From positions 1,050,001 through 1,082,000 of the forward strand of contig NC_013202.1 in NCBI RefSeq assembly GCF_000023965.1: DNA of 32,000 nucleotides. Direction: 5' to 3'. How positions within the stretch are numbered: position 1 is the first letter of the stretch; each line of letters opens with the position of its first letter. The notes below the pieces were generated by a model. It searched no databases and was not told where the DNA came from. It saw nothing but the letters and a program-made list of their open reading frames with translations. Positions 1,571 through 22,548 of this stretch are shown one piece after another. The position numbers and the translations under genes were made by a program. This stretch comes from Halomicrobium mukohataei DSM 12286. GTDB lineage: Archaea > Halobacteriota > Halobacteria > Halobacteriales > Haloarculaceae.

Positions 1571-2479
1571 ATGGAGATCGTCGTCTTCGGAGCGGGCAGT
1601 CTCGGCAGTCTGATCGGGGGGCTGCTGGCACGCAGCCACGACGTGACTCTGGTCGGGCGCGAGCCACACGTCGGGACGGTCGAGCGGTCGGGGCTGGCGA
1701 TCGAGGGCGCGATCGACGCGCACGTGAGGCCGGCCGCGGGGACTACATCGCCCGCCGCGGCAGACCTCGCCGTCGTGACGGTCACGGCCGGCGACACCGA
1801 CGCCGCCGCCGCGGCGCTCTCTGACACGGCACTCGACGCCTGCCTCTCGCTGCAAAACGGCATGGGCAACGAGGCGACGCTCGCCGAGCGACTGGGCTGT
1901 CCCGTCCTCGCGGGCACCTGCACCTACGGCGCACGCCTGACCGAGCCCGGCGTGGTCGCGTGTACCGGCGTCGGCGAGGTCGTGCTGGGTCCCCGCGAGG
2001 GCGGCCGCTCCGAGCCGGCCGACCGCGCTGGGGCGGCGTTTACCGACGCCGGTGTCGAGACCACCGTCGCCGACGACATGCCGCGACGGCTCTGGGAGAA
2101 GCTGGCGGTCAACGCCGGAATCAACGCCACGACGGCGCTGGCCCGCGTCCCCAACGGCGCGCTCGTCGACGGTCCGGCACGGCGGGTCGCCGAGCGCGCT
2201 GCACGGGAAACGGCGGCCGTGGCCCGCGAACACGGCGTCGATCTGCCGGACGAGCGGGCCGCCCAGATAGCGATGCAGGTGGCTACGGACACCGCCGCGA
2301 ACCGCTCCTCGATGTTGCAGGACGTGGCCGACGGACGACAGACCGAGATCGACGCGATCAGCGGCTACGTCGTAGAGCGGTCTGGGGGTGTGGCGGTCCC
2401 CGTCAACGAGACGCTGACCGCGCTCGTGCGGGCGTGGGAAGACGAGAACAGTACGGGACGACGCTATAGTAGCCATTGA
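1571..2479 (+). CDS. panE: 2-dehydropantoate 2-reductase (ketopantoate reductase family)
   Basis: The N-terminal Rossmann motif MEIVVFGAGSLGSLIGGLLA and the overall length (302 aa) match ApbA/PanE. I chose the ATG at 1571 because the track's 120-codon upstream extension is Arg-rich. The last four codons and the stop lie inside a palindromic element. Confidence 0.8.
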   Translation: MEIVVFGAGSLGSLIGGLLARSHDVTLVGREPHVGTVERSGLAIEGAIDAHVRPAAGTTSPAAADLAVVTVTAGDTDAAAAALSDTALDACLSLQNGMGNEATLAERLGCPVLAGTCTYGARLTEPGVVACTGVGEVVLGPREGGRSEPADRAGAAFTDAGVETTVADDMPRRLWEKLAVNAGINATTALARVPNGALVDGPARRVAERAARETAAVAREHGVDLPDERAAQIAMQVATDTAANRSSMLQDVADGRQTEIDAISGYVVERSGGVAVPVNETLTALVRAWEDENSTGRRYSSH

Positions 2480-2548
2480 AAATCAATGCACACCCGATCG
2501 CACGACGGCAGTGCGATCGGTGTGTCAATCGTTTCAATTGTTACTATA
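2465..2548. repeat. palindromic MITE-like element, family 1, copy 1 (84 bp)
   Basis: It is 83/84 identical to 17620-17703. The terminal inverted repeats TATAGTAGCCATTGAAA / TTTCAATTGTTACTATA are 15/17 complementary. The central hairpin is CCGATCGCAC-GACGGCA-GTGCGATCGG. Confidence 0.9.
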
Positions 2549-3579: not shown

Positions 3580-5100
3580 TCAGTCGATGTAGCCCAGGTC
3601 TTTCAGGCGATCCTTCGCGTCGTCGTCCATCGAGTCCAGCACCTCGCCGTCGGTGCCGTCGGCCTCGTCGGGCCAGTCGGCGTCGACGCGGTCGACGAAG
3701 TCGGAGAGCTCCGCTTCGAGGTCGACCAGCAGTTCGTCGTCACTGCCCGCACGGTCCTCGGTCTCGCCGGGGTCGCTGTCGATCCGGTACGCCTCGTCCG
3801 GGATGCGCGTACAGTGGATGTACTTGCCCTCGGGCGAACGGGCCGCGCCCATCCGAGAGTAGAACCGCGAGTCCGTCTCCAGGGCGATGCCGGCCGCGCT
3901 GGCTTTCCCCTCCAGCTGGCGGAGCTCGACGACCGGCTGGTGGTACTCGACGAAGCCCACGTCACCGCGGGGGCCGTGTGCGCCCGCACCGTTCGAGGCC
4001 GTCCCGGCGAACTCGCGATACTCCGTCGAGAGCAGGGAGCGAGCGGGATCGAGCGAGACGCCGTCGCCCGCGACGCCGGTCGCGTCCAGCACGGAGTGAT
4101 ACAGGTCGACGAGTTCGACGACCGTCTCGTCGTCGCGTTCGGGCTCGATCTCGGGGTGCTTGACCATGCAGGGGACGTTCACCAGCGGATCGTAGATGCA
4201 GAACTCGTGGCCGTAGAGGCCGTGTTCGCCGTGCAGTTCGCCGTGGTCGGCCGCTACGACGACCATCGTCTCGTCCCACTGGCCGGTCTCCTTGAGGTGG
4301 GTAAAGAGCCGGTCGAGCTGGTCGTCGATGTGGCGGATCTCGGCGTCGTACAGCCCCTCGATGTCGTCCCACTCCGCGTCGTCGATGTCGCGAGCGCCGC
4401 AGTTGAACTCCTTGGAGTTCTGGCACACCTCGGCCGAGTCGACGCCGGGCGCGAACTGCTCGACGTACTCCTCGGGCGGGTGGTAGGGGAGGTGGGCGTC
4501 CATCAGGTTGATGAACGTGAAGAAGTTCTCCGAGTCGTCGATGAAGTCCATCGTCTTGTCGATCACGGCGGGGGTCTTCGTGTCGCCCCCGCCCTCGGAG
4601 GCGAAGTACTCGTGGAACTTGTTGCCCAGCTGGACCATCCGATCGGCGACGCCCCGCAGGGTGTCGCTGTCGTTCATCGTCTGCCAGATCCGGGCCAGCG
4701 GCCCCGAGAGGAGTTCGCTGGGCATGATCTGGAAGAAGTTGTCGTGGTCGTCGAACCCCGCGGTGAGGTTCGTGTAGGGCGTGATCCAGGCGTTCGAGGA
4801 GTAACAGGCCGTGTCGTAGCCGGCCGCCGACAGCGACTCGGCCAGCGTGGTCGCCCCGTCGAGATAGGGGTCCTCCTGTGTGGCCTCGTGTTCGGAGGGG
4901 TACAGCCCCGTAAACAGGGAGGCGTGGACCGGCAGGGTCCAGGGGGCCGGCGCAACGGCGTGTTCGAAGACCGCCGCTTCCTCGGCGAACGCCTCCAGGG
5001 TCGGAGTCGTCGGCTCGTCGTACCCGTACGCCGAGAGGTGGTCCTTGCGGACCGTATCGAGCACGACGAAGAGCACGTTCGTCCCGTCCGCACCAGTCAT
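3580..5100 (-). CDS. sulfatase-fold (alkaline phosphatase superfamily) protein with Thr at the nucleophile position
   Basis: Motifs are VLDTVRKDH, PWTLPVHASLFTG (aligning to the sulfatase C/S-x-P-x-R signature) and ADHGELHGEHGLYGH. I chose the ATG at 5100 (MTGADGTNV) because a TTTAAA box lies about 27 nt upstream. Confidence 0.8.
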   Translation of the reverse strand: MTGADGTNVLFVVLDTVRKDHLSAYGYDEPTTPTLEAFAEEAAVFEHAVAPAPWTLPVHASLFTGLYPSEHEATQEDPYLDGATTLAESLSAAGYDTACYSSNAWITPYTNLTAGFDDHDNFFQIMPSELLSGPLARIWQTMNDSDTLRGVADRMVQLGNKFHEYFASEGGGDTKTPAVIDKTMDFIDDSENFFTFINLMDAHLPYHPPEEYVEQFAPGVDSAEVCQNSKEFNCGARDIDDAEWDDIEGLYDAEIRHIDDQLDRLFTHLKETGQWDETMVVVAADHGELHGEHGLYGHEFCIYDPLVNVPCMVKHPEIEPERDDETVVELVDLYHSVLDATGVAGDGVSLDPARSLLSTEYREFAGTASNGAGAHGPRGDVGFVEYHQPVVELRQLEGKASAAGIALETDSRFYSRMGAARSPEGKYIHCTRIPDEAYRIDSDPGETEDRAGSDDELLVDLEAELSDFVDRVDADWPDEADGTDGEVLDSMDDDAKDRLKDLGYID

Positions 5101-5124
5101 ACTGAGTACGGCATCGTCCACGAG

Positions 5125-5130
5125 TTTAAA
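5125..5130 (-). promoter_or_regulatory. TATA-like box (TTTAAA) upstream of the sulfatase-fold gene
   Basis: This is the only AT-rich hexamer in the region. It is centred about 27 nt upstream of the ATG at 5100. Confidence 0.35.
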
Positions 5131-5298
5131 GACCGCGTTTCGCGGCTCTGGGTGGCCTCCGAGCGAGCCGGCCGCCCGACCCGCTGCTCATACTGCCGGC
5201 TGTAACTTCGTGAAGGTCTTCGCTACCCCGGGGTGGTGAAATCGCTCACAGATTTACAGCCGGTAGTCTCAGTTGCTGTAACGTCACAGCCCGCAGCG

Positions 5299-6051
5299 TC
5301 ACTCGCGGTGACTCGGCGCGGCCGCCTCGACCGCCGTCGTCGCCAGTGTCTCGAAGTCGGCGGTGTCGGGAACGACGTCGACGTCGATGCCCGCGTCCGT
5401 GGCCGTCTGTCGGGTCGGCTCGCCGATCGCGCCGACGACGGCGTCGTTCAGCCCCTCGACAGCGTCCGCTCGAATTCCTCGCTCGTCGGCCGCAGCGAGG
5501 AAGTGTCGAACGGTCAGCGAGGAGGTGAACAGTGCGGCGTCGAGGTCGCCGGCCGCCGCACGCTCCGTCGACGCTCCGGCCCCCTCTGGCCGGACGAGTC
5601 GGTAGAGGATCGTCTCGTGGACGTACGCGCCGGCCGCTTCCAGTCCGTCGGTCAGGACCGCCGAGCCGTGATCCGAGCGCGCCACCTCGACGCGCGCGCC
5701 GTCGACGCTCTCTTCGAGCGCGGCGACCAGTCCGGTCGAGGAGTACTCCTCGGGCACCAGATCGACCGCGTAGCCGGCGTCTTCGAGCACGTCTGCGGTC
5801 GGCCGGCCGATCGCACAGACTGTCGCGTCGCCGGGGTCCCACCCGGCCTCTGTGGCCAGTTCGACGCCGGTCTTGCTCGTGAGGACGACGTAGTCCGCGT
5901 CGGATCGGGGCGTCGCCCCGGTCGCCTCGACGGCGAGCATCGGGTCCGGGACCGGGTCGGCACCGAGCGACTCCAGCAACTCGACGGCCTGGGTGGTCCG
6001 CTCGTCGTCGGGGCGGAACACGGCGACGCTGAGCCGCGGTTCCTCACGCAT
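5299..6051 (-). CDS. hemD: uroporphyrinogen-III synthase
   Basis: HemD-like two-lobed sequence (VAVFRPDDE..., VLTSKTGVE..., ALFTSSLTVRHF). The ATG at 6051 overlaps the cobA stop (ATGCGTGA). Confidence 0.8.
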   Translation of the reverse strand: MREEPRLSVAVFRPDDERTTQAVELLESLGADPVPDPMLAVEATGATPRSDADYVVLTSKTGVELATEAGWDPGDATVCAIGRPTADVLEDAGYAVDLVPEEYSSTGLVAALEESVDGARVEVARSDHGSAVLTDGLEAAGAYVHETILYRLVRPEGAGASTERAAAGDLDAALFTSSLTVRHFLAAADERGIRADAVEGLNDAVVGAIGEPTRQTATDAGIDVDVVPDTADFETLATTAVEAAAPSHRE

Positions 6052-6871
6052 CGCCGTCACCGCCGTCGTCGACCGCCTCGTTCTCCGGCTCCCGATCGGC
6101 TCCGACGAGGAACTCCAGGACGTCCGCGCGCGTCGCCGCTACGTCGCCGATGACGGTGATCGCTGGCGGCTCGATGCCGGCCGCGTCGCGGGCGGAGACG
6201 ATACTGTCGAGGGTCCCCGTCGCGACCTGCTGGCCCGGCCACGTCGCGCGCTCGATCAGCGCGACCGGTGTCTCGGGGTCCATGCCGGCCTCGCGGAGCG
6301 CGGCCGTGTAGTCGGGCAGCTTGCCGACGCCCATCAGCACGACGATGGTGCCGCCGGTCGCGGCGAGTGCCGCCCAGTCGACGGCCGACTCCGCTTTCGT
6401 GGGGTCTTCGTGGCCGGTGACGAACGACACCGACGACGCGTGGTCGCGGTGGGTGACCGGGATGCCGGCGGCCGCCGGACCGGCGACGGCCGACGTGATT
6501 CCGGGGACGATCTCGACCGGAACGCCGTGCCGTGCGAGGTGGACGAGCTCCTCGCCGCCGCGGCCAAACACCGTGGGATCCCCGCCCTTGAGCCGCACCA
6601 CGTCCTTGCCCTCGCGGGCCAGCTCCACGAGGCGACGGTTCGTGTACTCCTGGGGCGTCCACTCGCCGCCCGCGCGCTTGCCCACGTCCTCGCGTTTCGC
6701 CTCGGGGATCATGCCGATGATCTCCGGACCGGGGAGCTTGTCGTGTAACACCACGTCGGCCGTTTCGAGCAGTCGCTTGGCCTTCACCGTCAGCAGTTCC
6801 GGATCGCCGGGGCCGGAGCCGACGAGGTGGACCGTCCCGGTCGCTTCGCCCTCGCCCGTGTCGTCGCTCAT
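6044..6871 (-). CDS. cobA: uroporphyrinogen-III C-methyltransferase (SUMT)
   Basis: VHLVGSGPGDPELLTVKA, VVRLKGGDPTVFGRGGEE and VPGITSA are the tetrapyrrole methylase signatures. Its start overlaps the hemC stop (ATGA). Confidence 0.85.
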   Translation of the reverse strand: MSDDTGEGEATGTVHLVGSGPGDPELLTVKAKRLLETADVVLHDKLPGPEIIGMIPEAKREDVGKRAGGEWTPQEYTNRRLVELAREGKDVVRLKGGDPTVFGRGGEELVHLARHGVPVEIVPGITSAVAGPAAAGIPVTHRDHASSVSFVTGHEDPTKAESAVDWAALAATGGTIVVLMGVGKLPDYTAALREAGMDPETPVALIERATWPGQQVATGTLDSIVSARDAAGIEPPAITVIGDVAATRADVLEFLVGADREPENEAVDDGGDGDA

Positions 6872-8001
6872 TCGTCGCCGGCTCCCTGGGCCGTCGCCGC
6901 GTCGCCGCCCTCGCCCGCTCGCTTGGCTTGCTCGATGAGGTCTGCTCCACCCTGTTCCGCCAGATCGGCGGCGAACGCTCGCGCGTCGTCGACGTGGCGA
7001 TCCGCCGAGAGGTCACGCGTGGCGGCGACCTCCCGCTCGCCCGCCTGGTCGAGGACGCGCACGGTCGTCCGGATCACGCTGCCCTGCAAGATCGCGTGGA
7101 CGCCCAGCGGTGCGACACACCCCCCGCCCAGCTCGTCGAGGACGGTCCGCTCGACGGTCGTCTCCGCCCGCGAGCGCGGGTGGTCGAGGGCGTCGTTGAG
7201 TTCCCGTGCGAACTCGTCGTCGGTCGCGGTGACCGCCAGCGCCCCCTGGCCGGGCGCGGGGACGAACGTCCCGGTCGGGAGCGACTGGTACTCGACGTGG
7301 TGGAGCAGTCCGGCCCGTTCCAGGCCCGCGCGAGCGAGGACGACGGCGTCGTACGCCGTCTCGACCTCGCGGCCCAGCGCCTGCCGTTCGATCTCGGTGA
7401 GCCCGTCGAACCACGTCTCTACGTCCTGCTCGTACGGGAATTCGTACTCCTCGTCGTCGACCTTCTCTTTTTGCTCTTTCTCGGCCTCGCTGCGCTCCTC
7501 GTGTTCGGACTGGAGGGTCGGCGCGAGCAGCTTCTCGATGCGCGTGTCGACGTTGCCACGGAGCGGTTGCACGTCGAGATCCGGTCGCTCGGCCAGCAGC
7601 TGGGCCTTTCGACGGAGGCTCGACGTGCCGACGGTCGCGCCGTCGGGCAGCTCATCGACGGTGGCTCCGTCCGGCGTCACCAGCACGTCGTCGGGTGATT
7701 CCCGCTGGGGCACGCCAGCGACGACCAGCTCCTCGGGCTGTTCGGTCGGCACGTCTTTCATCGAGTGGACGGCGGCGTCGACCTCGCCGTCGACGACCTG
7801 TTCGTCGAGGCTGCGGACGAACGCGCCGGTCTTGCCCAGCCGGTGGATCAGTTCGTCCCGGATCTGATCGCCTGTCGTCTCTACCTCGACGATCTCGACC
7901 GTGTACCCCCGCGCTTCGAGCGTCTCGGTGACGGTCGCGGCCTGACGCAGGGCCAGGTCCGAGCCCCGCGTCGCCAGTCGCACCGTCGTCGCTGTAGTCA
8001 T
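6868..8001 (-). CDS. hemC: hydroxymethylbilane synthase (porphobilinogen deaminase) with an acidic insertion
   Basis: RLATRGSDLALRQA, HSMKDVPT, GTSSLRRKAQL and LRGNVDTRIEKL are present. An acidic insert of about 55 aa precedes YDAVVLARAGL. Confidence 0.9.
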   Translation of the reverse strand: MTTATTVRLATRGSDLALRQAATVTETLEARGYTVEIVEVETTGDQIRDELIHRLGKTGAFVRSLDEQVVDGEVDAAVHSMKDVPTEQPEELVVAGVPQRESPDDVLVTPDGATVDELPDGATVGTSSLRRKAQLLAERPDLDVQPLRGNVDTRIEKLLAPTLQSEHEERSEAEKEQKEKVDDEEYEFPYEQDVETWFDGLTEIERQALGREVETAYDAVVLARAGLERAGLLHHVEYQSLPTGTFVPAPGQGALAVTATDDEFARELNDALDHPRSRAETTVERTVLDELGGGCVAPLGVHAILQGSVIRTTVRVLDQAGEREVAATRDLSADRHVDDARAFAADLAEQGGADLIEQAKRAGEGGDAATAQGAGDE

Positions 8002-13708: not shown

Positions 13709-14377
13709 TCACATCAGCCGTTCGACGAGAGCGCTCCCCTCGACGTAGGCCAGCCCCTCGCGCTCGGCGTAGGCTCGCGCCGCCGCCGGCGTCAGTGCGC
13801 CGCCGGTCTCGTCGTCGAGCATCTCACAGACCACGACTGCCGGGGGCTGGTCGGCCGCCGCGGCGACGGCCAGCCCGAGTTCGGTGTGTCCCAGCCGGTC
13901 CGAGAGCAGTCCGGGCGCACCGCGCAGCAGCGTCACGTGGCCCGGCGACCGGAACTGTTCGGCGAAGGTCGTTCCGTCGGGCTCGCTCGCGGCCCCTGCG
14001 AGTTCGGTGATCGTCAGCGACCGGTCCTCGTCGGTGATGCCGGTGTGGGTGTCGCGGTGGTTGACCGTCAGCGAGAACGACGAGCGTTCGTCGTACCCCA
14101 GTTCGTGATCGGCGGCACTGGGGTGATCGAGCGACTCCTGCATGAACGGCAGGTCGAACGAATGGGCCACCGAATCCGAGAGCGCGACACAGACCAGTCC
14201 GCCGGCGTCGTTGCGCAGTCGGGCGACGGCGTCGGGCGTCACTGCGCCGGCCGGATACACCAGATCGACCTCGCCCTCGCGATCGGCCGCGTCGTGGATC
14301 AGGATCGGCTGGCCGCGGCCAAAGGCCGCGATGGCGTCGTCGGCACCCGTCGCTGCCTGCTCACTGCTCCGAGACAT
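13709..14377 (-). CDS. ribB: 3,4-dihydroxy-2-butanone-4-phosphate synthase
   Basis: [32 protein letters not shown] and RSPGHV are the DHBP synthase signatures. It overlaps the ribK 3' end by 17 nt. Confidence 0.9.
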
Positions 14378-15059
14378 GGACAGTCACCTCGTCACCGTCG
14401 GCCAGGCCGACCACGTCGCGGAGTTTCTCCGGGGCGATCACTTCCAGCTGGCTCTCTCCGTGGTGGGTTCGCTCGGGGGCGATGACGTGGGCGGGCTCGT
14501 ACTCGCTGTCCCCGGCGACGACGGAGGCCGGATAGCAGTACGCCGGGCCGTACGTTCGCTCGTCGTCCTCCCAGCCCTCGATCGTGACGGGCTCGAAGGC
14601 GCTCAGCCGAGCGCGCTTGCGGACGCTCTCGTCGACGAGGTCGACGTTGAGCGTCCCGGCGAAGGGCTCGTAGCCGAGCTTGTCGATGAACTGCTCCATG
14701 TACCCTGGCAGCGTGATGTAGTGTCGCCCCTCGCCCATGCCGGAGGTGACGATCCCGCCCAGATCGACGCCGACGGCTCCCTCGAAGATCCGTCGGTAGT
14801 CGGCGTACTCTCGCTGGAGAGCCCGCTCGCCGACCTCGCTGATCTGGATGAGCTGTCCGTCGCCGACGATGTCCCGATCGATCATCTCCGCTTCCTCCAG
14901 CCGCTGGAGCCGCCGCGAGGCGGTCTGGTTGGAGGCGTCCAGCCGGTCGGCGAGCGCCGAACAGGACTCCTTTCGCTCGCCTTCGATCGCGCCGTCGAGG
15001 GCCAGCAACTTCAGCGTCGCCAGCTCGTCGTGGCCGACGGCCCGCGTTGTCTCTGCCAT
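14361..15059 (-). CDS. ribK: CTP-dependent riboflavin kinase fused to an N-terminal winged-HTH domain (RbkR-like)
   Basis: The C-terminal half ([23 protein letters not shown]...GTLNVDL...YCYPA) matches the archaeal MJ0056-type kinase. The N-terminal ~90 aa look like a MarR/ArsR-like wHTH. ATG at 15059. Confidence 0.85.
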
Positions 15060-15093
15060 GCACACGAGTTGGCACTATCGCGGGAAAAGGATA

Positions 15094-16044: not shown

Positions 16045-16830
16045 ATGACTGTCGCGGACCTCCACGTCCACACGCAGCGCTCGGACGGGACGCTGTCCCT
16101 CGACGAGGTGCCGGCGGCCGCACGGCGCGGCGGCCTCGACGCCGTCGCGGTGACCGACCACGACCGGCTCTCGCCCGACCTCGACGCCCCCGTGACGACA
16201 CGCGAGGGGATCACGGTCGTCCACGGGATCGAGCTCCGGGTCGAGGCCGGCCAGCAGCGTCTCGACCTGCTCGGCTACGGCGTCTCGCCGACGGACGCGC
16301 TGGTCGCCGAGTGCGAGCGCATCCAGCGAAACCGGGCCGAGCGCGGGGCGGCCATCGTCGACTGCGTCGAGGAGCGACTGTCCGTTTCGCTGCCGATCGA
16401 ACCGCGGCCCGGACTGGGTCGGCCACACATCGCACGCGCGATCGCGGAAGTCAGCGACTACGACGTCGACGGCGCGTTCGCCCACCTCATCGGCGACGAC
16501 TGTCCGTGTTACGTCTCCCGCGAAGTCCCCTCTTTCGAGCGGGGCCGTGAGTTACTGGCCGACGCGTGCGGACTCGTGGGGCTGGCCCATCCGCTGCGCT
16601 ACGACGACCCCGAGAGCGCGCTCGCGCTCTGTGACACGCTCGACGCCGTCGAAGGTCCCTACCCCTACGCCGACGACCCCGACCTGTCTGCCGTCGACCG
16701 GGCCATCGAGCGCCACGACCTGCTGGTGACCGGGGGGAGCGACGCGCACGACGACCGGCTGGGCCTGGCCGGTCTGGACAGCGCTCAGTGGGAGCGCGTC
16801 CGGGACGCCCTGGACGTGTCGCCGGAGTGA
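16045..16830 (+). CDS. PHP-domain metal-dependent phosphoesterase
   Basis: I chose the ATG at 16045. ADLHVHTQRSDG, AVTDHD, HGIEL and GGSDAHD are the PHP motifs. The 399 upstream codons of the track ORF are antisense to ribK. Confidence 0.8.
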   Translation: MTVADLHVHTQRSDGTLSLDEVPAAARRGGLDAVAVTDHDRLSPDLDAPVTTREGITVVHGIELRVEAGQQRLDLLGYGVSPTDALVAECERIQRNRAERGAAIVDCVEERLSVSLPIEPRPGLGRPHIARAIAEVSDYDVDGAFAHLIGDDCPCYVSREVPSFERGRELLADACGLVGLAHPLRYDDPESALALCDTLDAVEGPYPYADDPDLSAVDRAIERHDLLVTGGSDAHDDRLGLAGLDSAQWERVRDALDVSPE

Positions 16831-17154: not shown

Positions 17155-17634
17155 ATGGAACGGACCAGCATCGACGACGTGGACGCGCGGATCGGTCCCG
17201 CGGCCGTCAAGCGAGCGCTCGGCCCGGCGCTGGAGACGACCGAGGTCGCTCTCAACTACTACGAACTCGCGCCCGGCGACAGCTTCGGCTTCGGCTATCA
17301 CCGCCACAGCGATCAGGAAGAGGTCTTCTACGTCTTTCAGGGGACCGCCACCTTCGAGACCGAGGACGGGCCGGTAGCGGTCGGTCCCGACGAGGTGATC
17401 CGGTTCGCGCCGGGCGAGTGGCAGCTCGGTCGCAACGCGGGCGACGAGCGAGTCGTCGCACTGGCCGTCGGTGCTCCCGAAGCCAGCGGCGACACGGAGA
17501 TGGTACGTGCGTGTCCCGACTGTGAGGAGCGAACCGAACAGACCGTCGACTGGGCCGACGACGGCGACGCTCTCGTGACGCTGTGTGTCGACTGCGGTGC
17601 CAGAACCGGGCGATTCGAATATAGTAGCCATTGA
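17155..17634 (+). CDS. cupin-domain protein with a C-terminal zinc ribbon
   Basis: The cupin motifs are GYHRHSDQEEVFYVFQG and IRFAPGEW. CPDCE...CVDCG forms a zinc ribbon. The last four codons (YSSH) and the stop lie inside family 1 element copy 2. Confidence 0.8.
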   Translation: MERTSIDDVDARIGPAAVKRALGPALETTEVALNYYELAPGDSFGFGYHRHSDQEEVFYVFQGTATFETEDGPVAVGPDEVIRFAPGEWQLGRNAGDERVVALAVGAPEASGDTEMVRACPDCEERTEQTVDWADDGDALVTLCVDCGARTGRFEYSSH

Positions 17635-17703
17635 AAATCAATGCACACCCGATCGCACGACAGCAGTGCGATCGGTGTGTCAATCGTTTCAATTGTTACT
17701 ATA
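17620..17703. repeat. palindromic MITE-like element, family 1, copy 2 (84 bp)
   Basis: It is 83/84 identical to 2465-2548. The single G/A difference is in the hairpin loop (2507 vs 17662). Confidence 0.9.
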
Positions 17704-17704
17704 G

Positions 17705-17819
17705 CTACTCGAAGGCGTCGATGCCGGTCAGATCGGCCCCGAGGATCAGCGTGTGGATGTCGTGAGTCCCCTCGTAGGTGTAGACGGTCTCCATGTTTGC
17801 GGCGTGGCACATCGACGGG
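17705..17819 (-). pseudogene. duplicated 3' end of the acyl-CoA dehydrogenase gene (left copy of the 118-bp direct repeat 17702-17819)
   Basis: 107 nt are identical to 19615-19721. Identity then continues to 17819/19732 with 2 mismatches. The fragment encodes ...[33 protein letters not shown] with no upstream gene body. Confidence 0.85.
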
Positions 17820-18057
17820 CTTTCGCCGAGGGGTTCGCGTCACGAACCCAAGGCGAAAAGCGGTCGTGCTTATACCGCCGGCTGTACGTCTGTACAGAAT
17901 TTCGCGACCCCGTGGTCGCGCAGATCTTGAAACAGTTACAGTCGGCAGTATTATTCCACAACTTTGCGGCGCAGCTCTGTCGTTGCGTCCGAGCGTCATT
18001 GCTCGGTGGAATACGAGATCCGAAGTACTTATTTCAACCACTACGCTTCTGGTTGGT

Positions 18058-19488
18058 ATGCCACGCCCGGCCACCGTACTCCTTGTCGTACTCGTTTCCG
18101 TCGGTGGTGTCGGACTGGTGCTCTCGACGAACGTCGTCGCGCTCGACGAGGACGGGATGCCGGCGGTAGCGGAACTGCAGCAAGACACGGATCCACTCGT
18201 CGCCGATACGGACGATGACGGTCTCGACGACGGTTCCGAAGTCGACGAGCTCGGGACGGATCCAGTGGTCGCCGATACGGACGATGATGGTCTCGACGAC
18301 GGTTCTGAAGTCGACGAGCTCGGGACGGATCCAGTGGTCGCCGACACGGACGAGGACGGTCTCGACGACGGTTCCGAAGTCGACGAGCTCGGGACGGATC
18401 CAGTGGTCGCCGACACGGACGGCGACGGTCTCGACGACGGCTCCGAAGTATATACGCACGAGACGGGGCCGATGTCGGCCGATACAGACCACGATGGACT
18501 CAACGACAGTACCGAGATCGAGATCCACGGAACAGACCCCACCTCGGCCGACAGCGACGCCGACGATCTCGAAGACCTCGACGAAATCGAGCTTCACGGC
18601 ACAGATCCTGCGGCAGCCGACACGGACGGGGACGGCCTCGACGACGGTGCCGAAGTGTACCAGCACCGAACTGGCACGACGACAGCTGACACGGACGGTG
18701 ACGGTCTCGACGACGGCACAGAGATCGAAGTCCACGGTACGGATCCCACGGCAGCCGACACGGACGGAGACGGCCTCGAAGACGCTGCCGAAATCGAGAT
18801 TCATGACACGGACCCCCTACAGGCCGACATGGACGGGGACGGTCTCAAGGACGGTGACGAAGTCGACCACGACGCGCTTGACGAGGCAGATCCATTCCGT
18901 ATGGATATTTTCGTCGAGGTAGACTACGTCGAGGGATACAAACCGCCGACGCGATCTCTGGAGATGGTCAGGGAAGCGTACGCGGCGGCACCGATATCGA
19001 ACCCGGACAGTTCAACTGGTATTCGACTCCACATCAGTTACGGCGAGGCGATCGATACTGACGGTCGCGTTAGTCTCGACGAGCTGCGGCAACGTTACAC
19101 GCCCGTATACTTCGATCACGAAGACGACGGTTACCACTACGGCATCGCGGTCGGCGACGCTCGGCACGACGCCCGCTCCGTCGCTGGGGTAACCCAAGGC
19201 TGGGGCGACAACAGACCATTTCTCTTCGAGACGGCCCGAGACGACAGTGACCAGACGCTACCCGACGACTCCATCGCGAGTACATTCATGCACGAACTGG
19301 GCCACTCGAACGGGATCCGACCGAACGACTACGAGGGCGTCGACTCGAAGGCTGTCAGTACAGACCGCTACGAAAGTGCGATGAACTACAACGCTCCGAA
19401 TGGGTACGTGGGCTACAACGACGGAGTGCCGTTCGACGACTGGGACCACATCGAGCACCACCTCCACACGCCGGACGTACGAGACTGA
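18058..19488 (+). CDS. secreted protein with 10 thrombospondin-type-3-like calcium-binding repeats and a C-terminal metzincin-like zinc peptidase domain
   Basis: I chose the ATG at 18058 (MPRPATVLLVVLVSVGGVGLVL is a signal/anchor). There are ten DxDxDGLxDxxE units. HELGH lies at 19291-19305 and a Met-turn-like SAMNY at 19375-19389. The track ORF's upstream 139 codons start inside the palindromic element. Confidence 0.75.
   Translation: MPRPATVLLVVLVSVGGVGLVLSTNVVALDEDGMPAVAELQQDTDPLVADTDDDGLDDGSEVDELGTDPVVADTDDDGLDDGSEVDELGTDPVVADTDEDGLDDGSEVDELGTDPVVADTDGDGLDDGSEVYTHETGPMSADTDHDGLNDSTEIEIHGTDPTSADSDADDLEDLDEIELHGTDPAAADTDGDGLDDGAEVYQHRTGTTTADTDGDGLDDGTEIEVHGTDPTAADTDGDGLEDAAEIEIHDTDPLQADMDGDGLKDGDEVDHDALDEADPFRMDIFVEVDYVEGYKPPTRSLEMVREAYAAAPISNPDSSTGIRLHISYGEAIDTDGRVSLDELRQRYTPVYFDHEDDGYHYGIAVGDARHDARSVAGVTQGWGDNRPFLFETARDDSDQTLPDDSIASTFMHELGHSNGIRPNDYEGVDSKAVSTDRYESAMNYNAPNGYVGYNDGVPFDDWDHIEHHLHTPDVRD
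18190..18465 (+). repeat. four tandem 69-bp (23-codon) repeats, about 94% identical, within the TSP3 region
   Basis: The units are 18190-18258, 18259-18327, 18328-18396 and 18397-18465 (the last diverges at its end). Neighbouring full units differ at 4/69 positions. More diverged units continue to about 18870. Confidence 0.9.
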
Positions 19489-19614
19489 TACTGTCGACTG
19501 TCACCGCCTCAACCCGCATCTCCGGAGACAGTAGTCGCCACATGTCACTGCACAGCCAGCGGTGTATGTCGTCGCGTTTCGTTGTGTGAGAACGCAGTCC
19601 GCTCGCGATTCGAG

Positions 19615-19732
19615 TAGCTACTCGAAGGCGTCGATGCCGGTCAGATCGGCCCCGAGGATCAGCGTGTGGATGTCGTGAGTCCCCTCGTAGGTGTAGACGG
19701 TCTCCATGTTTGCGGCGTGGCGCATCGGCGGG
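19615..19732. repeat. right copy of the 118-bp direct repeat (functional 3' end of the acyl-CoA dehydrogenase gene)
   Basis: See 17702-17819. The offset between copies is 1913 bp. Confidence 0.9.
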
Positions 19733-20844
19733 TAGTCGGTCGTGATCCCGTTGCCCCCCAGCATCTCGCGGGCGGTCTGTGCGACCTCGCGGGCCATCCG
19801 GACGTTGTTGCGCTTGGCCATCGACACCTGCTGGGGGCGCAGATCGCCGCGTGCTTTCAGCGTCGCCAGCCTGTCGGCGAGCAGCTGTGCGGTCGTAATG
19901 CGGGTCGCCATCTCGGCGAGCTTCTCCTGTTGGAGCTGGAAGCGGGCGATCGGGCCGCCGAACTGCTCGCGGTCGGTCGCGTACTCGCGGGCCGCCTCGA
20001 AGCAGTCTCGGGCGGCCCCGACCGCGCCCCACGCGATGCCGTAGCGTGCTTCGGTGAGACAGGACAGCGGCCCTTTCATCCCCTCGACGCCGGGCAGGAG
20101 GGCGTCCTCTGGCACCCACGCGTCCCGGAGGTGGATCTCGCCGGTCGAAGAGGCCCGCATCGAGAGCTTCCCGTCGATCTCGCTGGTCTCGACACCGCCA
20201 GACCGGTCGGTCTGGCGAGGCTCGGTCTCGCCTTGCTCCTCCGAGACGCCCTCACTGTCCAGATCGACGAGAACGCCACGAACGGGATCGTCGGTCTCGG
20301 CGTCCCCGTCGTCGATCTTGCACCAGATCACGGCCACGTCGGCGATCGGCGCGTTCGTGATCCACGTCTTCGTTCCCGAGAGCCGATAGCCGTCCCCGTC
20401 GGGCACCGCAGTCGTCTCCATGCTCGCCGGGTCAGAGCCGTGCTCTGGCTCTGTCAGGCCGAAACAGCCGACGGCGTCGCCCGCGGCGAGGTCGGGCAGC
20501 CATCGCTCTCGCTGGGCCTCGCTTCCGAACTCGTGGATCGGATACATCACCAGCGCGCCCTGGACGCTGGCCATCGAGCGCACGCCGGAGTCGCCGGCCT
20601 CCAGTTCCTGCATGAGCAGGCCGTACGAGCGGGGACTCACTCCCGGAAGCGTTCCCCACGACAGCGTCGGCGCGAAGAAGTCCAGTTCGCCCATCGCCTC
20701 GAACAGGTGGTCGGGCGAGGTCCCGGACTCGAACCACTCGCCGATCTCGGGGCGAACGTGCTCGTCGACGAACTCGCGGGCGGTGTCGCGGATCATACGT
20801 TCCTCGCCGTCGAGGTCGCTCTCCAGGTCCAGATAGTCGAGCAT
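19618..20844 (-). CDS. acyl-CoA dehydrogenase, glutaryl-CoA dehydrogenase-like
   Basis: I chose the ATG at 20844 (MLDYLDLESDL...). GCFGLTEPEHGSDPASM, WITNAPIADVAVIW and [13 protein letters not shown] are present. The track's upstream 287 codons are Arg-rich and overlap the next gene. Confidence 0.85.
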   Translation of the reverse strand: MLDYLDLESDLDGEERMIRDTAREFVDEHVRPEIGEWFESGTSPDHLFEAMGELDFFAPTLSWGTLPGVSPRSYGLLMQELEAGDSGVRSMASVQGALVMYPIHEFGSEAQRERWLPDLAAGDAVGCFGLTEPEHGSDPASMETTAVPDGDGYRLSGTKTWITNAPIADVAVIWCKIDDGDAETDDPVRGVLVDLDSEGVSEEQGETEPRQTDRSGGVETSEIDGKLSMRASSTGEIHLRDAWVPEDALLPGVEGMKGPLSCLTEARYGIAWGAVGAARDCFEAAREYATDREQFGGPIARFQLQQEKLAEMATRITTAQLLADRLATLKARGDLRPQQVSMAKRNNVRMAREVAQTAREMLGGNGITTDYPPMRHAANMETVYTYEGTHDIHTLILGADLTGIDAFE

Positions 20845-20957: not shown

Positions 20958-21677
20958 TCAGTCGTCTGCGGCCGCGACGCCGCCGGACTCTCCCGTCCCG
21001 GCTCGCCCTCGGAGGTACTGCGTGAAGTTGTCGAAGAGGCGTTTTGCCTCGCAGGCGGCGTCGTAGTTCTCGGACGTGATCCCGTCGAGGACCTGCTGTA
21101 TCCGTTCTTCGGAGAGCTGATCGTCCTTGCCTCGGGTGACCTCGCGGGCCGTCTCGGTGTCGTACTCGGGGTGGAACTGCACCGAGAACACGTCCTCGGT
21201 CTGGAACCCGTGGATGCCGTAGTCGTTGGCGGCGAACTGCTCGGCTCCCGGTGGCAGCTCGACGACGCGGTCGGAGTGGGTCGTAAAGACGGTGAACCGC
21301 TCGTCGACGCCGTCGAGCAGTTCGCTGGTGCCGTCGTGTTCGACGGTGCGATAGCCGATCTCGTACTCGTCCATCGGCTCGACCTCGCCGCCCAGTGCGT
21401 GTGCGAGCAGCTGGTGGCCGAAACAGACGCCCAGGAACGCCACGTCGCGCTCGACCGCGTCGCGGACCCACGAGGTCAGGTCCGCGATCCAGGGCTCCTC
21501 CCAGTAGACGGAGGCGCGGGACCCGGTGAGGAGACAGCCGTCGAACGCGAAGGTGTCTGGCAGTTCGCGTTCGGTCACGTCGTACTCGACGAGGTCGGCG
21601 TCTAGCTCCCGCCGGAAGTTCCGGCGGTTGAGCGCCCCGTCGTGGGCCGCGTTCAGCAAGGCGATCCTGAGGCTCAT
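20958..21677 (-). CDS. class I glutamine amidotransferase-like protein
   Basis: GVCFGHQLLAHALGG is the nucleophile-elbow Cys motif, and FSVQFHPE is the His-Glu region. ATG at 21677. Confidence 0.8.
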   Translation of the reverse strand: MSLRIALLNAAHDGALNRRNFRRELDADLVEYDVTERELPDTFAFDGCLLTGSRASVYWEEPWIADLTSWVRDAVERDVAFLGVCFGHQLLAHALGGEVEPMDEYEIGYRTVEHDGTSELLDGVDERFTVFTTHSDRVVELPPGAEQFAANDYGIHGFQTEDVFSVQFHPEYDTETAREVTRGKDDQLSEERIQQVLDGITSENYDAACEAKRLFDNFTQYLRGRAGTGESGGVAAADD

Positions 21678-21768
21678 CACTCCTATTCAGCGGGTCGAGC
21701 CACAAAAGCGTACAGATACGTGGCCGTATTTGCCGATCTCCGCGACGCCGCTGTCGCGGGTCGGCCGG

Positions 21769-22548
21769 TCACGCGTCGTCGGTCTGTTCGTCGAGCCAGC
21801 CAAGCACCGCGTCCGAGACCGCGGCGCTCTCCTCGACGAAGGCCCAGTGGCCGCCCTCGACGGCGCGGTACTCCCCTCGCGGGAGGTCCGCGGCCAGGGA
21901 CTCGCCGGCCGACGCCGGAACGATCTCGTCGTCGACGCCGTGCAGAACCAGCGTGGGCAGCGTGATCTCGTACAGCGGCGGGGCCTCGAACGCCCGCATC
22001 GCGGCGGCCTGTGCGTCCCACGCCGCCGGGTCGGCGTCGTCGGCCTGTCGCCACTCGACCATCTCCTCGCGGATGGTGGGGTGGTCGGTTAGATCCGATG
22101 CGAACGCGGTCTGTAGCGACGTTTCGAGCGCCGCGCGGTCGTCCAGCGAGGCACGGAGGTCGTCCAGCTTGTCGGTCACCGCGTCGCCGCTGGCGGCGGT
22201 CCCGAAGAGCGTCAGCGACGCCCCACGGTCGTACTCGTGGGCGTAGGCCAGGGCGACCATCCCGCCCAGTCCCGCGCCGACGAGGTGGACCCGCGCGACG
22301 CCGGCATCGGCAAACACCGCCTCCAGATCGGCCGCGAGTCGGTCGACACTGTAGGGCCCCGGCGGCGCGTCCGAGCGCCCGGTCCCGCGGAGGTCCCACA
22401 CGAGGCTCTCGTATGGGCCGGCGACGACGCCGTGTTGCCAGCTCCAGAGCCACGCGCCGGCCCCCACGTCGTTGACGAACGCCACTGTCTCGCCGTCTCC
22501 GTCGCACTCGTAGTGTACTGCGACGCCGTCGGCTGTCGCGGTCGGCAT
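21769..22548 (-). CDS. alpha/beta-hydrolase-fold protein lacking the nucleophile serine
   Basis: The fold motifs are present (LRGTGRSD, LHGVDDEIVP, GGHWAFVEE). The nucleophile elbow reads VGAGLGG (Gly where Ser is expected), and the HG oxyanion dipeptide reads ND. Confidence 0.7.
   Translation of the reverse strand: MPTATADGVAVHYECDGDGETVAFVNDVGAGAWLWSWQHGVVAGPYESLVWDLRGTGRSDAPPGPYSVDRLAADLEAVFADAGVARVHLVGAGLGGMVALAYAHEYDRGASLTLFGTAASGDAVTDKLDDLRASLDDRAALETSLQTAFASDLTDHPTIREEMVEWRQADDADPAAWDAQAAAMRAFEAPPLYEITLPTLVLHGVDDEIVPASAGESLAADLPRGEYRAVEGGHWAFVEESAAVSDAVLGWLDEQTDDA

Follow-up and report, generated by a model that had tools for sequence, protein, structure and literature searches.

An apparently foreign 1.8-kb insert bracketed by a duplicated junction of two convergent genes in Halomicrobium mukohataei

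In Halomicrobium mukohataei DSM 12286 a single gene for a predicted secreted or anchored protein lies between two convergent housekeeping genes, a cupin gene and the acyl-CoA dehydrogenase gene acd, and is flanked by long direct repeats. How did this DNA enter a site without intergenic space, and by what agent? We addressed these questions in a 32-kb window (contig NC_013202.1, positions 1,050,001 to 1,082,000), to which all coordinates refer unless stated otherwise. The original prediction for this locus was of an insertion produced by integration of a circular element carrying an attachment region that resembles the 3′ end of acd. The features of the locus are collected in Table 1.

Table 1. 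Positions of the insert, its flanking repeats and neighbouring features in the window.
Feature	Coordinates	Strand	Remarks
Cupin gene with C-terminal zinc ribbon	17155..17634	+	Convergent with acd; Pfam Cupin_2, E 2.5e-13
Outer 12 nt of left repeat copy (GCGATTCGAA + TA)	17610..17621		Cupin end before the MITE; 11/12 match to 19605-19616 without M2
M2, palindromic MITE-like repeat (TAGTAGCCATTGAAA...TTTCAATTGTTACTA)	17622..17701		80 bp; interrupts left repeat copy
Left repeat copy, as first seen	17702..17819	-	Orphan acd 3′ end: 37 codons, stop and 3 nt
Insert proper	17820..19604	+	1785 bp; not in H. katesii or other relatives (BLAST)
Nested hairpin at left end of insert	17821..17858		-16 kcal/mol; z -3.55; 0/200 shuffles as good
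MITE-1, palindromic MITE in insert	17873..17950	+	78 bp; TTA target duplication 17870-17872 / 17951-17953
Cargo gene	18058..19488	+	476 aa; TSP3_bac Pfam E 3.4e-27; sole convincing gene of insert
Terminator-like stem with T-rich tail	19559..19585	+	3′ of cargo gene; suggestive, from a consensus scan designed for bacteria
Right repeat copy	19605..19732	-	128 nt; cupin-end relic, both stops, functional acd 3′ end
Functional acyl-CoA dehydrogenase gene acd	19618..20844	-	408 aa; Pfam Acyl-CoA_dh_N/M/1 (all three domains); NCBIfam; UniRef name

A repeat search returned the predicted direct repeats at 17702-17819 and 19615-19732, 118 nt long, 98% (116/118) identical and spaced 1913 nt apart. The first 107 nt are identical, with the two mismatches at 108 and 114 of the repeat. 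Both copies, read on the minus strand, code for the C-terminal end of the acd product, which is glutaryl-CoA dehydrogenase-like. The right copy is in frame with the whole of the enzyme, whereas the left copy is truncated by upstream stops, in agreement with the proposal that acd is completed by the right copy, the left one being an orphan. A 71-aa ORF annotated across this fragment is probably spurious.

The repeat had been taken to be specific to acd and to end 3 nt past its stop codon, which proved incorrect. M2 lies within the left copy, with a probable TA target duplication at 17620-17621 and 17702-17703. When M2 and one TA were taken out, the repeat gained 10 nt, giving 128 nt with 125/128 identical (17610-17621 plus 17704-17819 against 19605-19732) and including the last 10 nt of the MITE-free cupin gene. 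An anchored-match shuffle test gave p of about 0.002-0.003 for the match of 17610-17621 to 19605-19616. Within the right copy, 19605-19614 is a relic of the cupin end (CGA TTC GAG, encoding RFE), 19615-19617 is the former cupin stop codon TAG, 19618-19620 is the acd stop codon, and the remainder is the working 3′ end of acd. The duplicated segment is thus the stop-to-stop junction of both convergent genes and not the end of acd alone; its boundary apparently matched the acd gene end because the MITE later inserted in the left copy. As the 128-bp duplication brackets the insert, the cupin end is kept in the left copy and the acd end in the right copy, and both genes remain intact. The last four codons and the stop of the present cupin gene (YSSH-stop) come from M2, and the last four residues of its product are MITE-derived; cupin orthologues end GRF(D/T/E)-stop. 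At 19609-19626 the right copy contains a perfect 18-nt palindrome, TTCGAGTAG/CTACTCGAA. We rejected its interpretation as a fold-back signature or as the core site of a recombinase, because the two convergent genes each end F-E-stop (TTC GAG TAG).

The three mismatches of the 128-nt repeat are all no more than 11 nt from the insert, the odd allele in each case being on the side next to it. Two of them are G to A changes (+ strand) near the inner edge of the left copy. At these positions 80/80 and 79/80 orthologues have G on the + strand (C on the acd strand). Both left-copy variants are non-synonymous, altering invariant Pro and Arg codons, and both are C to T on one strand. They do not derive from a functional acd allele, and could equally be junction-associated or post-insertion mutations.

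The predicted insertion was borne out by comparison with relatives. In Halomicrobium katesii, positions 7113-7230 of contig L006 form an exact empty site with one repeat copy, which is matched by both copies in the window; here acd runs directly into M2 and then into the cupin gene. In six more distant relatives acd and the cupin gene are adjacent, convergent neighbours and the TSP3 gene is absent. The insertion is thus genuine and lineage-specific, and separates two housekeeping genes that meet tail to tail. Halomicrobium sp. ZPS1, H. mukohataei DSM 12286 and a third NCBI record have identical acd and TSP3 proteins, and on other large contigs with acd and TSP3 proteins the neighbouring proteins are mostly the same. 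Independent Logan contigs span the right repeat into the insert with 100% identity. Given the 116/118 identity of the repeats, the three NCBI records and the independent contigs over the right junction, we regard an assembly artefact or a chance repeat as virtually excluded. The Logan contigs that cross the right repeat were also considered as proof that the left repeat is missing from these sequences. This was rejected: tip-clipping can explain the traversal, as both the M2 palindrome and the TSP3 repeats interrupt these assemblies.

A second copy of M2, with one base different, lies in the window at 2467-2546; the copy in H. katesii is orthologous to that at the cupin gene, and more copies were found at six other loci. 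The native cupin/acd "intergenic hairpin" is M2 itself. The right repeat copy keeps the MITE-free junction, which fits either an incoming copy that never contained M2 or an event older than M2. When the MITEs landed with respect to the integration event is an inference.

The GC content of the insert is 0.607, compared with 0.663 for the whole window, and falls to 0.53-0.60 at its left end, where a low-GC start had been noted before. GC3 of the cargo gene is 0.72, compared with 0.79-0.91 in the flanking genes. By composition, the insert appears to be foreign DNA. Two hairpins had been proposed near its left end. The nested hairpin folds as expected (Table 1), and a sequence search found no second copy of it. 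The other, at 17904-17921, is the centre of MITE-1. This element is short and non-coding, with terminal inverted repeats, a target duplication of fixed length and many copies, as is characteristic of MITEs: haloarchaeal contigs contain 88 distinct full copies, of which 75 have identical T-N-A flanks, and another copy lies at ~5191-5268 in the window. Literature searches for these MITEs, the locus tags and the accession returned nothing. No tRNA or Rfam features were found in the window or the insert, and past the terminal 10 nt the acd-proximal insert end showed no significant similarity to native flanking DNA or to the 3′ part of the cupin coding sequence.

As predicted, the repeats enclose one convincing gene (Hmuk_1119). 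Its product has a predicted hydrophobic N-terminal signal or anchor, about 10 TSP3 repeats (18133-18891, in tandem units of 69 nt) and, at the C-terminus, a metzincin-like domain in which HELGH (19291-19305) is accompanied by a Met-turn-like motif, SAMNY. Homologues conserve the pattern HELGH..G.DS..Y.SAMNY, in which SAMNY is invariant and HELGHSNG is conserved. The third ligand of the zinc motif lies outside the canonical HExxHxxGxxH/D position. Matches to Pfam Reprolysin, M12B and M10 were below threshold, the best PDB metalloproteinase profile match was to catrocollastatin (E 0.009), and the AlphaFold model was unusable (pLDDT 47). We describe the product as a TSP3-repeat protein that is predicted to be secreted or anchored and has a metzincin-like domain; RefSeq start sites of the protein leave out its signal peptide. 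Some 27 nt before the ATG there is a BRE/TATA-like sequence, CGAAgtaCTTATTT, which may act as a promoter. With its own promoter-like and terminator-like signals, the cargo gene appears to be self-contained.

The closest homologues of the cargo protein among about 15 billion proteins are no more than 51% identical and lie in unrelated neighbourhoods. A profile search of 1.84 billion proteins, run with an alignment that contained the repeats, for that reason gave mostly TSP3-repeat giants, together with about 17 further homologues of the full architecture. No comparable direct repeats were found around cargo homologues on other contigs. One candidate, a 350-nt repeat with 83% identity beside a homologue, looks like tandem paralogues.

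No recombinase, integrase, transposase or Rep gene was found on the insert, in agreement with the original prediction, or anywhere else in the window. Among the 25 longest inverted-repeat pairs listed, none joined the ends of the insert (17820 with 19604). With no transposase, no end inverted repeats among those listed and a duplication of 128 bp as against 2-15 bp, the insert does not resemble a transposon or insertion sequence. Searches of plasmids and phages with the repeats and the insert DNA gave only TSP3-repeat matches and ordinary acd genes, and neither the acd C-terminal fragment nor the cargo domain was found in IMG/VR. The circle (attP) junction expected of a circular form was not found in an exact scan of metagenome contigs, which is weak evidence in a collection that probably contains no H. 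mukohataei DNA. At 78 other haloarchaeal acd loci, no integrase family was common to two or more of the 150 ORFs directly downstream of acd (an integrase at one single locus would not have been listed), and no second large duplication of the acd end was present. No copy of the insert turned up in plasmids, phages, IMG/VR or metagenome contigs. Nothing thus pointed to a family of mobile elements, there being no other copy, circle junction, recurrent integrase at the site or like repeats around cargo homologues. Of the attributes of a site-specific integrative element, the locus displays flanking direct repeats and an empty site; neither an integrase of its own nor related elements or reuse of attB were found.

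As the best explanation we tentatively favour integration of the Campbell type, in which a 1913-bp circle with a copy of the junction would have entered by a single crossover, probably through the host's homologous recombination. The circular molecule would consist of the insert and one repeat, the latter a copy of the acd/cupin junction. One reciprocal crossover between circle and chromosome ("pop-in") would double the junction in direct orientation, with the foreign DNA in between. On the acd strand, the predicted circle junction would read ...GGCGAAAG, the 128-bp repeat, CTCGCC.... We infer both the circular intermediate and the enzyme: as the insert and the whole window lack a recombinase and the block of identity is long, the crossover is attributed to host homologous recombination and not to a dedicated integrase. 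The empty site has a single junction segment and the insert is flanked by two direct copies of it, as Campbell integration requires. Haloarchaea integrate non-replicating circles efficiently by a single crossover, and pop-in/pop-out genetics is built on this. The three mismatches would be alleles of the incoming copy, since a crossover in the middle of the block would leave incoming alleles at both insert-adjacent edges, where all three sit; this placement is equally predicted by junction-associated mutation or by drift in the non-functional parts. Today the insertion behaves as fixed and non-autonomous, and recombination between the repeats could still remove it or release it as a circle. One difficulty is that the Campbell model needs a prior circle that joined foreign DNA to a 128-bp host fragment whose core is 107/107 identical to the recipient. 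Such a circle would presuppose that something unexplained had already happened in a very close relative, or that the repeats later underwent gene conversion with each other. The two non-synonymous left-copy variants at invariant codons also weigh against the model. In addition, small duplications at the acd 3′ end recur in other haloarchaea and hint at a locus prone to template switching, in favour of the main alternative. Integration of a circular element, as originally predicted, is thus upheld in its topology, which is that of a single crossover with a circle, but a one-step duplicative insertion fits about equally well.

In such a one-step event, the main alternative and in our view a possible but less probable one, the insert would arise during replication or break repair, by template switching of the MMBIR/FoSTeS type or at a break whose long staggered ends took up a foreign fragment. 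Synthesis would pass through the acd/cupin junction, move to a foreign template, copy 1.8 kb of it, and return 128 nt behind the point of departure. Both repeat copies would then come from the recipient itself, which explains the identical 107-nt core and the states shared against H. katesii without extra assumptions. The position of all three mismatches, no more than 11 nt from the insert junctions, is where error-prone synthesis or single-strand damage would act, and the site adjoins a long palindrome, M2, between convergent genes. In other haloarchaea the 3′ end of acd is moreover a hot spot of small duplications, either tandem or of a hairpin-containing "A-b-A" form: among the gene ends tested, which included about 75 of acd, they were present at 4 acd ends, as against 1 among roughly 500 other gene ends at the same loci (an Rfam search of the hairpin arrays at acd ends gave nothing relevant). 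The absence of M2 from the right copy is harder to accommodate. Either the polymerase skipped the 80-bp palindrome precisely, or the event predates M2, in which case H. katesii would have lost the insert afterwards. To our knowledge, insertion of foreign DNA on the kilobase scale by template switching is poorly documented in prokaryotes.

An improbable reading, to our minds, is that the insert is the remnant of a site-specific integrative element or a satellite mobilized in trans. A tyrosine-integrase element would have used the acd/cupin junction as attB, its 128-bp attP restoring both gene ends, and deletions would have left one cargo gene; alternatively, a small element could have been served by an integrase encoded elsewhere in the genome. 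In its favour, the repeats restore the interrupted genes, and integration of this kind is classic for e14 and phage 21 at icd in Escherichia coli. The right junction, TTCGAG-TAGCTA-CTCGAA, resembles a recombinase core of 6-6-6 layout, but that palindrome is fully explained by two genes both ending F-E-stop. Integrated elements of archaea likewise enter 3′-distal parts of protein-coding genes, with direct repeats and with empty sites in relatives; their att sites are only 8-69 bp long, however, compared with 128 bp here (Krupovic et al. 2019, PMC6563490). Neither the insert nor the window encodes an integrase, the 78 other loci contributed no integrase family shared by two or more downstream ORFs and no further large acd-end duplication, IMG/VR contained no acd-end fragment or cargo homologue, and the DNA matches in phages and plasmids were only to TSP3 repeats and ordinary acd genes. 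Very improbable is homology-facilitated illegitimate recombination with a linear donor in which the insert already lay beside a truncated cupin end and acd. One end would have joined by homology within acd and the other illegitimately, 116 nt inside the acd gene of the recipient, leaving the recipient's 3′ end as the orphan. The geometry is feasible on a single chromosome, and the right copy with its 10 nt of cupin end, which shows a synonymous GAA to GAG difference, looks like a contiguous, MITE-free orthologous piece. Yet the donor must already have held the insert through another unexplained event, and must have been MITE-free while identical to the recipient over 107 nt; beyond the 10 nt, the right insert end has no significant similarity to the cupin gene.

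Several known systems resemble this locus in part. In E. coli, e14 and phage 21 integrate at the 3′ end of icd; they are prophage-sized, encode their own integrase and excise, and the replacement icd end is visibly diverged along its length. As there, a housekeeping gene is cut near its 3′ end, the incoming replacement end keeps it functional, an orphan end lies on the far side, and the direct repeats are long. Here, by contrast, there is one cargo gene and no recombinase, the 128-bp repeats are nearly identical, and two convergent genes are restored together. CIMEs are att-flanked islands that lack recombination genes and are mobilized by a related ICE, with which, as an identifiable partner, they share att. 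The present insert likewise has att-like flanking repeats and no integrase of its own, but no partner element or shared att was found among plasmids, phages, IMG/VR or the 78 loci. Duplication-insertions by MMBIR or template switching come mostly from eukaryotes and from stress studies in E. coli, and their inserts are usually short or drawn from nearby in the same genome. In both cases a target duplication flanks the insert, mutations cluster near the junctions and the site is palindrome-rich; the insert described here differs in being 1.8 kb long and compositionally foreign. Pop-in/pop-out is a laboratory procedure with engineered plasmids and several hundred base pairs of homology. The topology is the same, with the shared segment doubled around the inserted DNA and recombination between the repeats reversing the event, whereas the locus studied here would involve a natural 1.9-kb circle and only 128 bp of homology. 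Finally, integrated elements of archaea share with this locus the direct repeats, the empty site in a close relative and the intact target gene. The smallest of them, however, is 2.6 kb long with four genes and carries an integrase, and it is by an integrase that each "cryptic integrated element" is recognized, whereas the present insert is 1.8 kb long, lacks an integrase and has a 128-bp repeat (PMC6563490).

The insert lies between genes without intergenic space, and the long duplication protects both. If it entered by a homologous single crossover or by template switching, it would represent a clean, natural gain of a gene by an archaeon without a dedicated mobility enzyme. This would add a route of acquisition to integrases, transposases and double crossover, and would predict cassettes that are reversibly present or absent within populations. 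As a single case, it carries moderate weight. A more speculative reading, which we consider rather unlikely, is that the 1913-bp unit is a recombinase-free cassette which enters and leaves the chromosomes of Halomicrobium solely through homologous recombination of the host, acting on a host-derived "handle". H. katesii would then be a revertant, in which pop-out followed the landing of M2 in the left repeat. Duplications of gene ends would be a general route by which polyploid, recombination-proficient haloarchaea add genes between abutting convergent genes with damage to neither.

The paired direct repeats at 17702–17819 and 19615–19732 are identical at 116 of 118 positions, with no mismatch in the first 107 nt. 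Read on the minus strand, the right copy forms the in-frame 3′ terminus of acd; the left copy, an orphan fragment, codes for an identical 37 residues plus stop but has stop codons in front of it. The duplication is not an assembly artefact: three NCBI records carry the same proteins, and other large contigs with these proteins mostly share the neighbouring ones. Exact matches to the acd, TSP3 and cupin proteins were found on the Halomicrobium sp. ZPS1 chromosome (GCA_009217585.1, CP045142.1, at about 1.70–1.72 Mb); the TSP3 and acd proteins of H. mukohataei DSM 12286 (Hmuk_1119, ACV47245/ACV47246) and of a third record (QCD65718/QCD65719) are the same. In addition, Logan contigs assembled independently from other read sets pass from acd across the right repeat and into the insert, with 100% identity. 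The public genome calls a 71-aa hypothetical gene (17746–17961, minus strand) on the orphan acd fragment and the insert's left non-coding end. Its frame differs from that of the orphan fragment, it has no Pfam match, and it is probably spurious.

The original prediction took the duplicated segment to be the acd 3′ end. The acd end is indeed duplicated, but the segment also takes in the end of the cupin gene and measures 128 nt once M2, an 80-bp palindromic MITE-like repeat with ends TAGTAGCCATTGAAA...TTTCAATTGTTACTA, is removed. The 65–80 nt between the cupin gene and the left repeat, with their long hairpin, are a copy of M2 and not unique sequence. Taking out M2 and one TA gives the pre-MITE junction ...GCGATTCGAA TAG/CTA CTCGAA..., in which the cupin RFE-stop abuts the acd stop. 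Because the right junction of the insert (19605–19626, ...GCGATTCGAG TAG CTA CTCGAA...) reads exactly as this M2-free junction, the duplicated segment is 128 nt long (17610–17621 plus 17704–17819 versus 19605–19732), with 125 of 128 positions identical and mismatches at positions 10, 118 and 124. The extra 10 nt match at 9/10 positions in an anchored comparison (p about 0.002–0.003, shuffle test), and no significant cupin similarity was found beyond it at the DNA or protein level. The 128-nt duplication protects both cupin and acd. An 18-nt perfect palindrome at the right junction is neither a recombinase core site nor a fold-back scar; the corrected anatomy explains it as two genes, both ending Phe-Glu-stop, lying tail to tail. 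By the same anatomy, the fit of the repeat boundary to the acd stop plus 3 nt is an accident of later MITE insertion.

Further M2 copies were found in unrelated haloarchaeal contigs (L111, L189, L199, L206, L084 and L023), and in L199 a copy of a second, 78-bp MITE is nested within M2. The target duplication of M2 is probably TA. In Halomicrobium the last four cupin codons and the stop come from M2 (...GRFE-YSSH-stop); cupin orthologues lacking M2 end in GRFD, GRFT or GRFE.

Coordinates of genes, alignment blocks, M2 copies and acd-end repeat units (positions in the window, or in the L-numbered loci of other haloarchaea; L006 is H. katesii)
Feature	Location	Strand	Remark
ribB	13709–14377	minus	
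Riboflavin kinase	14361–15065	minus	
PHP-domain gene	about 16045–16830	plus	
Cupin gene	17155–17634	plus	C-terminal zinc ribbon
TSP3-repeat gene	18058–19488	plus	cargo of the insert
acd	19618–20844	minus	408 aa
Class-I glutamine amidotransferase	20958–21680	minus	
Alpha/beta hydrolase	21769–22548	minus	
H. katesii block 1	L006 5110–7230		aligns with window 21735–19615
H. katesii block 2	L006 7113–9289		aligns with window 17819–15637
M2	17622–17701		exactly between cupin and acd stop codons (Halomicrobium)
M2, second window copy	2467–2546		1 base different
M2, H. katesii	L006 ~7225–7312		orthologous position
acd-end units	L081 7141–7370		four units
acd-end units	L018 7141–7290		three units
acd-end units	L053 7139–7225		two units
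acd-end units	L011 5660–5744		one extra copy
acd-end units	L013, just downstream of acd (acd match stops at 6089)		degenerate version of the arrangement

Scanning one genome per species yielded 80 orthologous acd loci, and among these the end of acd is present in a large second copy only in the lineage of the window. The acd gene of H. katesii DSM 19301 is 98% identical to that of the window, and its locus provides the empty site expected of an insertion: the alignment falls into two blocks whose overlap is one repeat copy, so the 1795 bp between the repeats and one repeat are missing. Nor is the duplicated arrangement shared by all relatives: in loci L005, L008, L016, L019, L047 and L068, from more distant ones, acd and cupin still lie side by side and convergent, with no TSP3 gene. 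Since H. katesii and more distant relatives have no insert, its absence is the ancestral state. The insert is compositionally foreign, with a GC content of 0.607 against 0.663 for the whole window; GC3 is 0.72 in the cargo gene and 0.79–0.91 in its neighbours. The acd protein has 408 aa in Halomicrobium versus about 386–390 aa in most orthologues, and in Halomicrobium its middle domain contains an acidic insertion of ~20 residues (DLDSEGVSEEQGETEPRQTDRSGGVETSEIDGK; residues ~195–228, window ~20160–20260).

The insert proper (17820–19604) has the predicted nested hairpin at its left end (17821–17858, z −3.55) and carries one gene, for the 476-aa TSP3-repeat protein. A BRE/TATA-like sequence read about 27 nt upstream of the ATG, CGAAgtaCTTATTT, is consistent with a leaderless haloarchaeal transcript, and a terminator-like stem with a T-rich tail follows the gene. 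The 78-bp palindromic MITE lies within the insert at 17873–17950, with ends TACTRCCGGCTGTA...TACAGCCGGCAGTA and a TTA target duplication. Other copies occur at window ~5191–5268, in L005 (2058–2137 and 9157–9245) and at about 85 metagenome loci (L100–L219). Haloarchaeal metagenome contigs supplied 88 distinct full copies, 75 of them with identical 3-nt T-N-A flanks, mostly TGA or TCA. The family has two sequence subtypes and is very abundant in samples Ga0207754 and ERZ1034569; it has no Rfam match, and we found no published description.

The cargo protein has a hydrophobic N-terminus followed by nine to ten 23-residue TSP3 repeats, coded by 69-nt tandem units (18133–18891), of which units 1–3 are nearly identical at the DNA level. 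Short-read Logan contigs stop within these units, at 18392. The RefSeq models WP_394324820.1 (384 aa) and WP_049940747.1 (338 aa) begin within the repeats and lack the N-terminal signal or anchor that the 476-aa GenBank models retain. In the C-terminal domain (about 210 residues) the pattern HELGHS-G...G-DS...Y-SAMNY is conserved. Its Pfam matches (reprolysin-like, matrixin) are sub-threshold, the best metalloproteinase match among solved structures has an E value of 0.009, and the structure model (pLDDT 47) is too poor for use; ‘metzincin-like’ is therefore a reasonable but provisional label. Homologues form a real but sparse family: 23 that have the C-terminal domain were found (26–51% identity, none higher), most also with TSP3 repeats. 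In the six different neighbourhoods covered, no homologue adjoins acd or cupin or has comparable flanking repeats. The homologue in L220 (C-terminal domain 47% identical) has a 350-nt direct repeat of 83% identity on either side (1822–2170 and 5044–5392), extending to the contig end; this repeat probably represents tandem paralogues of a 230-aa gene and not an insertion scar.

For the arrival of the insert we tentatively favour Campbell-type integration, in which a small circle of 1913 bp, comprising the insert and one repeat, would enter by a single crossover through host homologous recombination. The three repeat mismatches are all no more than 11 nt from the insert, each time with the unusual allele on the insert-adjacent, non-functional side. 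Positions 118 and 124 have A in the left copy and G in the right, corresponding on the acd strand to C>T changes at the first codon positions of Pro and Arg; there, 80/80 and 79/80 orthologues have C. At position 10, GAG in the right copy stands against GAA in H. katesii and in the functional end of cupin. This pattern is predicted by one crossover joining two 128-bp sequences that differed slightly, by error-prone synthesis or single-strand damage beside template-switch junctions, and by drift in non-functional parts with gene conversion of the core. Duplicative insertion in one step is possible but rather less probable than circle integration, and gains some support from downstream copies of the acd end. 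The last 23–30 nt of acd are repeated shortly downstream in four other haloarchaeal loci, as ‘A-b-A’ or tandem ~58-nt units. Each unit contains a hairpin-forming inverted repeat in which the last codons of acd pair with sequence downstream and the stop codon lies in the loop; the pairing shows covariation between lineages, and the units have no Rfam match. Among 584 gene ends in the same loci, five had a downstream copy; four of the five were acd ends, and only one came from the roughly 500 others, which suggests an unusual susceptibility of the acd end to local template switching.

A site-specific element, decayed or mobilised in trans, is improbable, and an illegitimate event with a linear donor very much so. 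As originally noted, no recombinase is encoded on the insert; the 32-kb window as a whole has no integrase, transposase or replication genes, tRNA genes or Rfam matches. No integrase family recurred in at least two of 150 ORFs directly downstream of acd (78 loci), and none of the 25 longest inverted-repeat pairs listed joined the two insert ends. For the archaeal elements they discuss, Krupovic et al. 2019 (PMC6563490) give att sites of 8–69 bp, and their cryptic elements, defined by an integrase, are at least 2.6 kb. Searched against plasmids and phages, the repeats plus insert gave no DNA match except TSP3 repeats and ordinary acd genes; IMG/VR held no acd-end fragment or cargo homologue, the predicted circle junction was absent from the metagenome contigs scanned, and no evidence of current mobility was found. 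Three orders of events fit: duplication in an M2-free ancestor, followed by M2 entry into the left copy and loss of the insert from H. katesii by repeat recombination; a crossover in the acd part of the repeat on an M2-bearing chromosome, the M2-free incoming copy bringing the insert; or a template-switch event with the polymerase bypassing the M2 palindrome. Divergence between the repeats (3/128) is similar to that between the window and H. katesii in M2 (2/88) and the flanks (about 3%). In all, this is a genuine, lineage-specific structure, more intricate than at first described; it varies a known kind of structure and does not amount to a new type of element.
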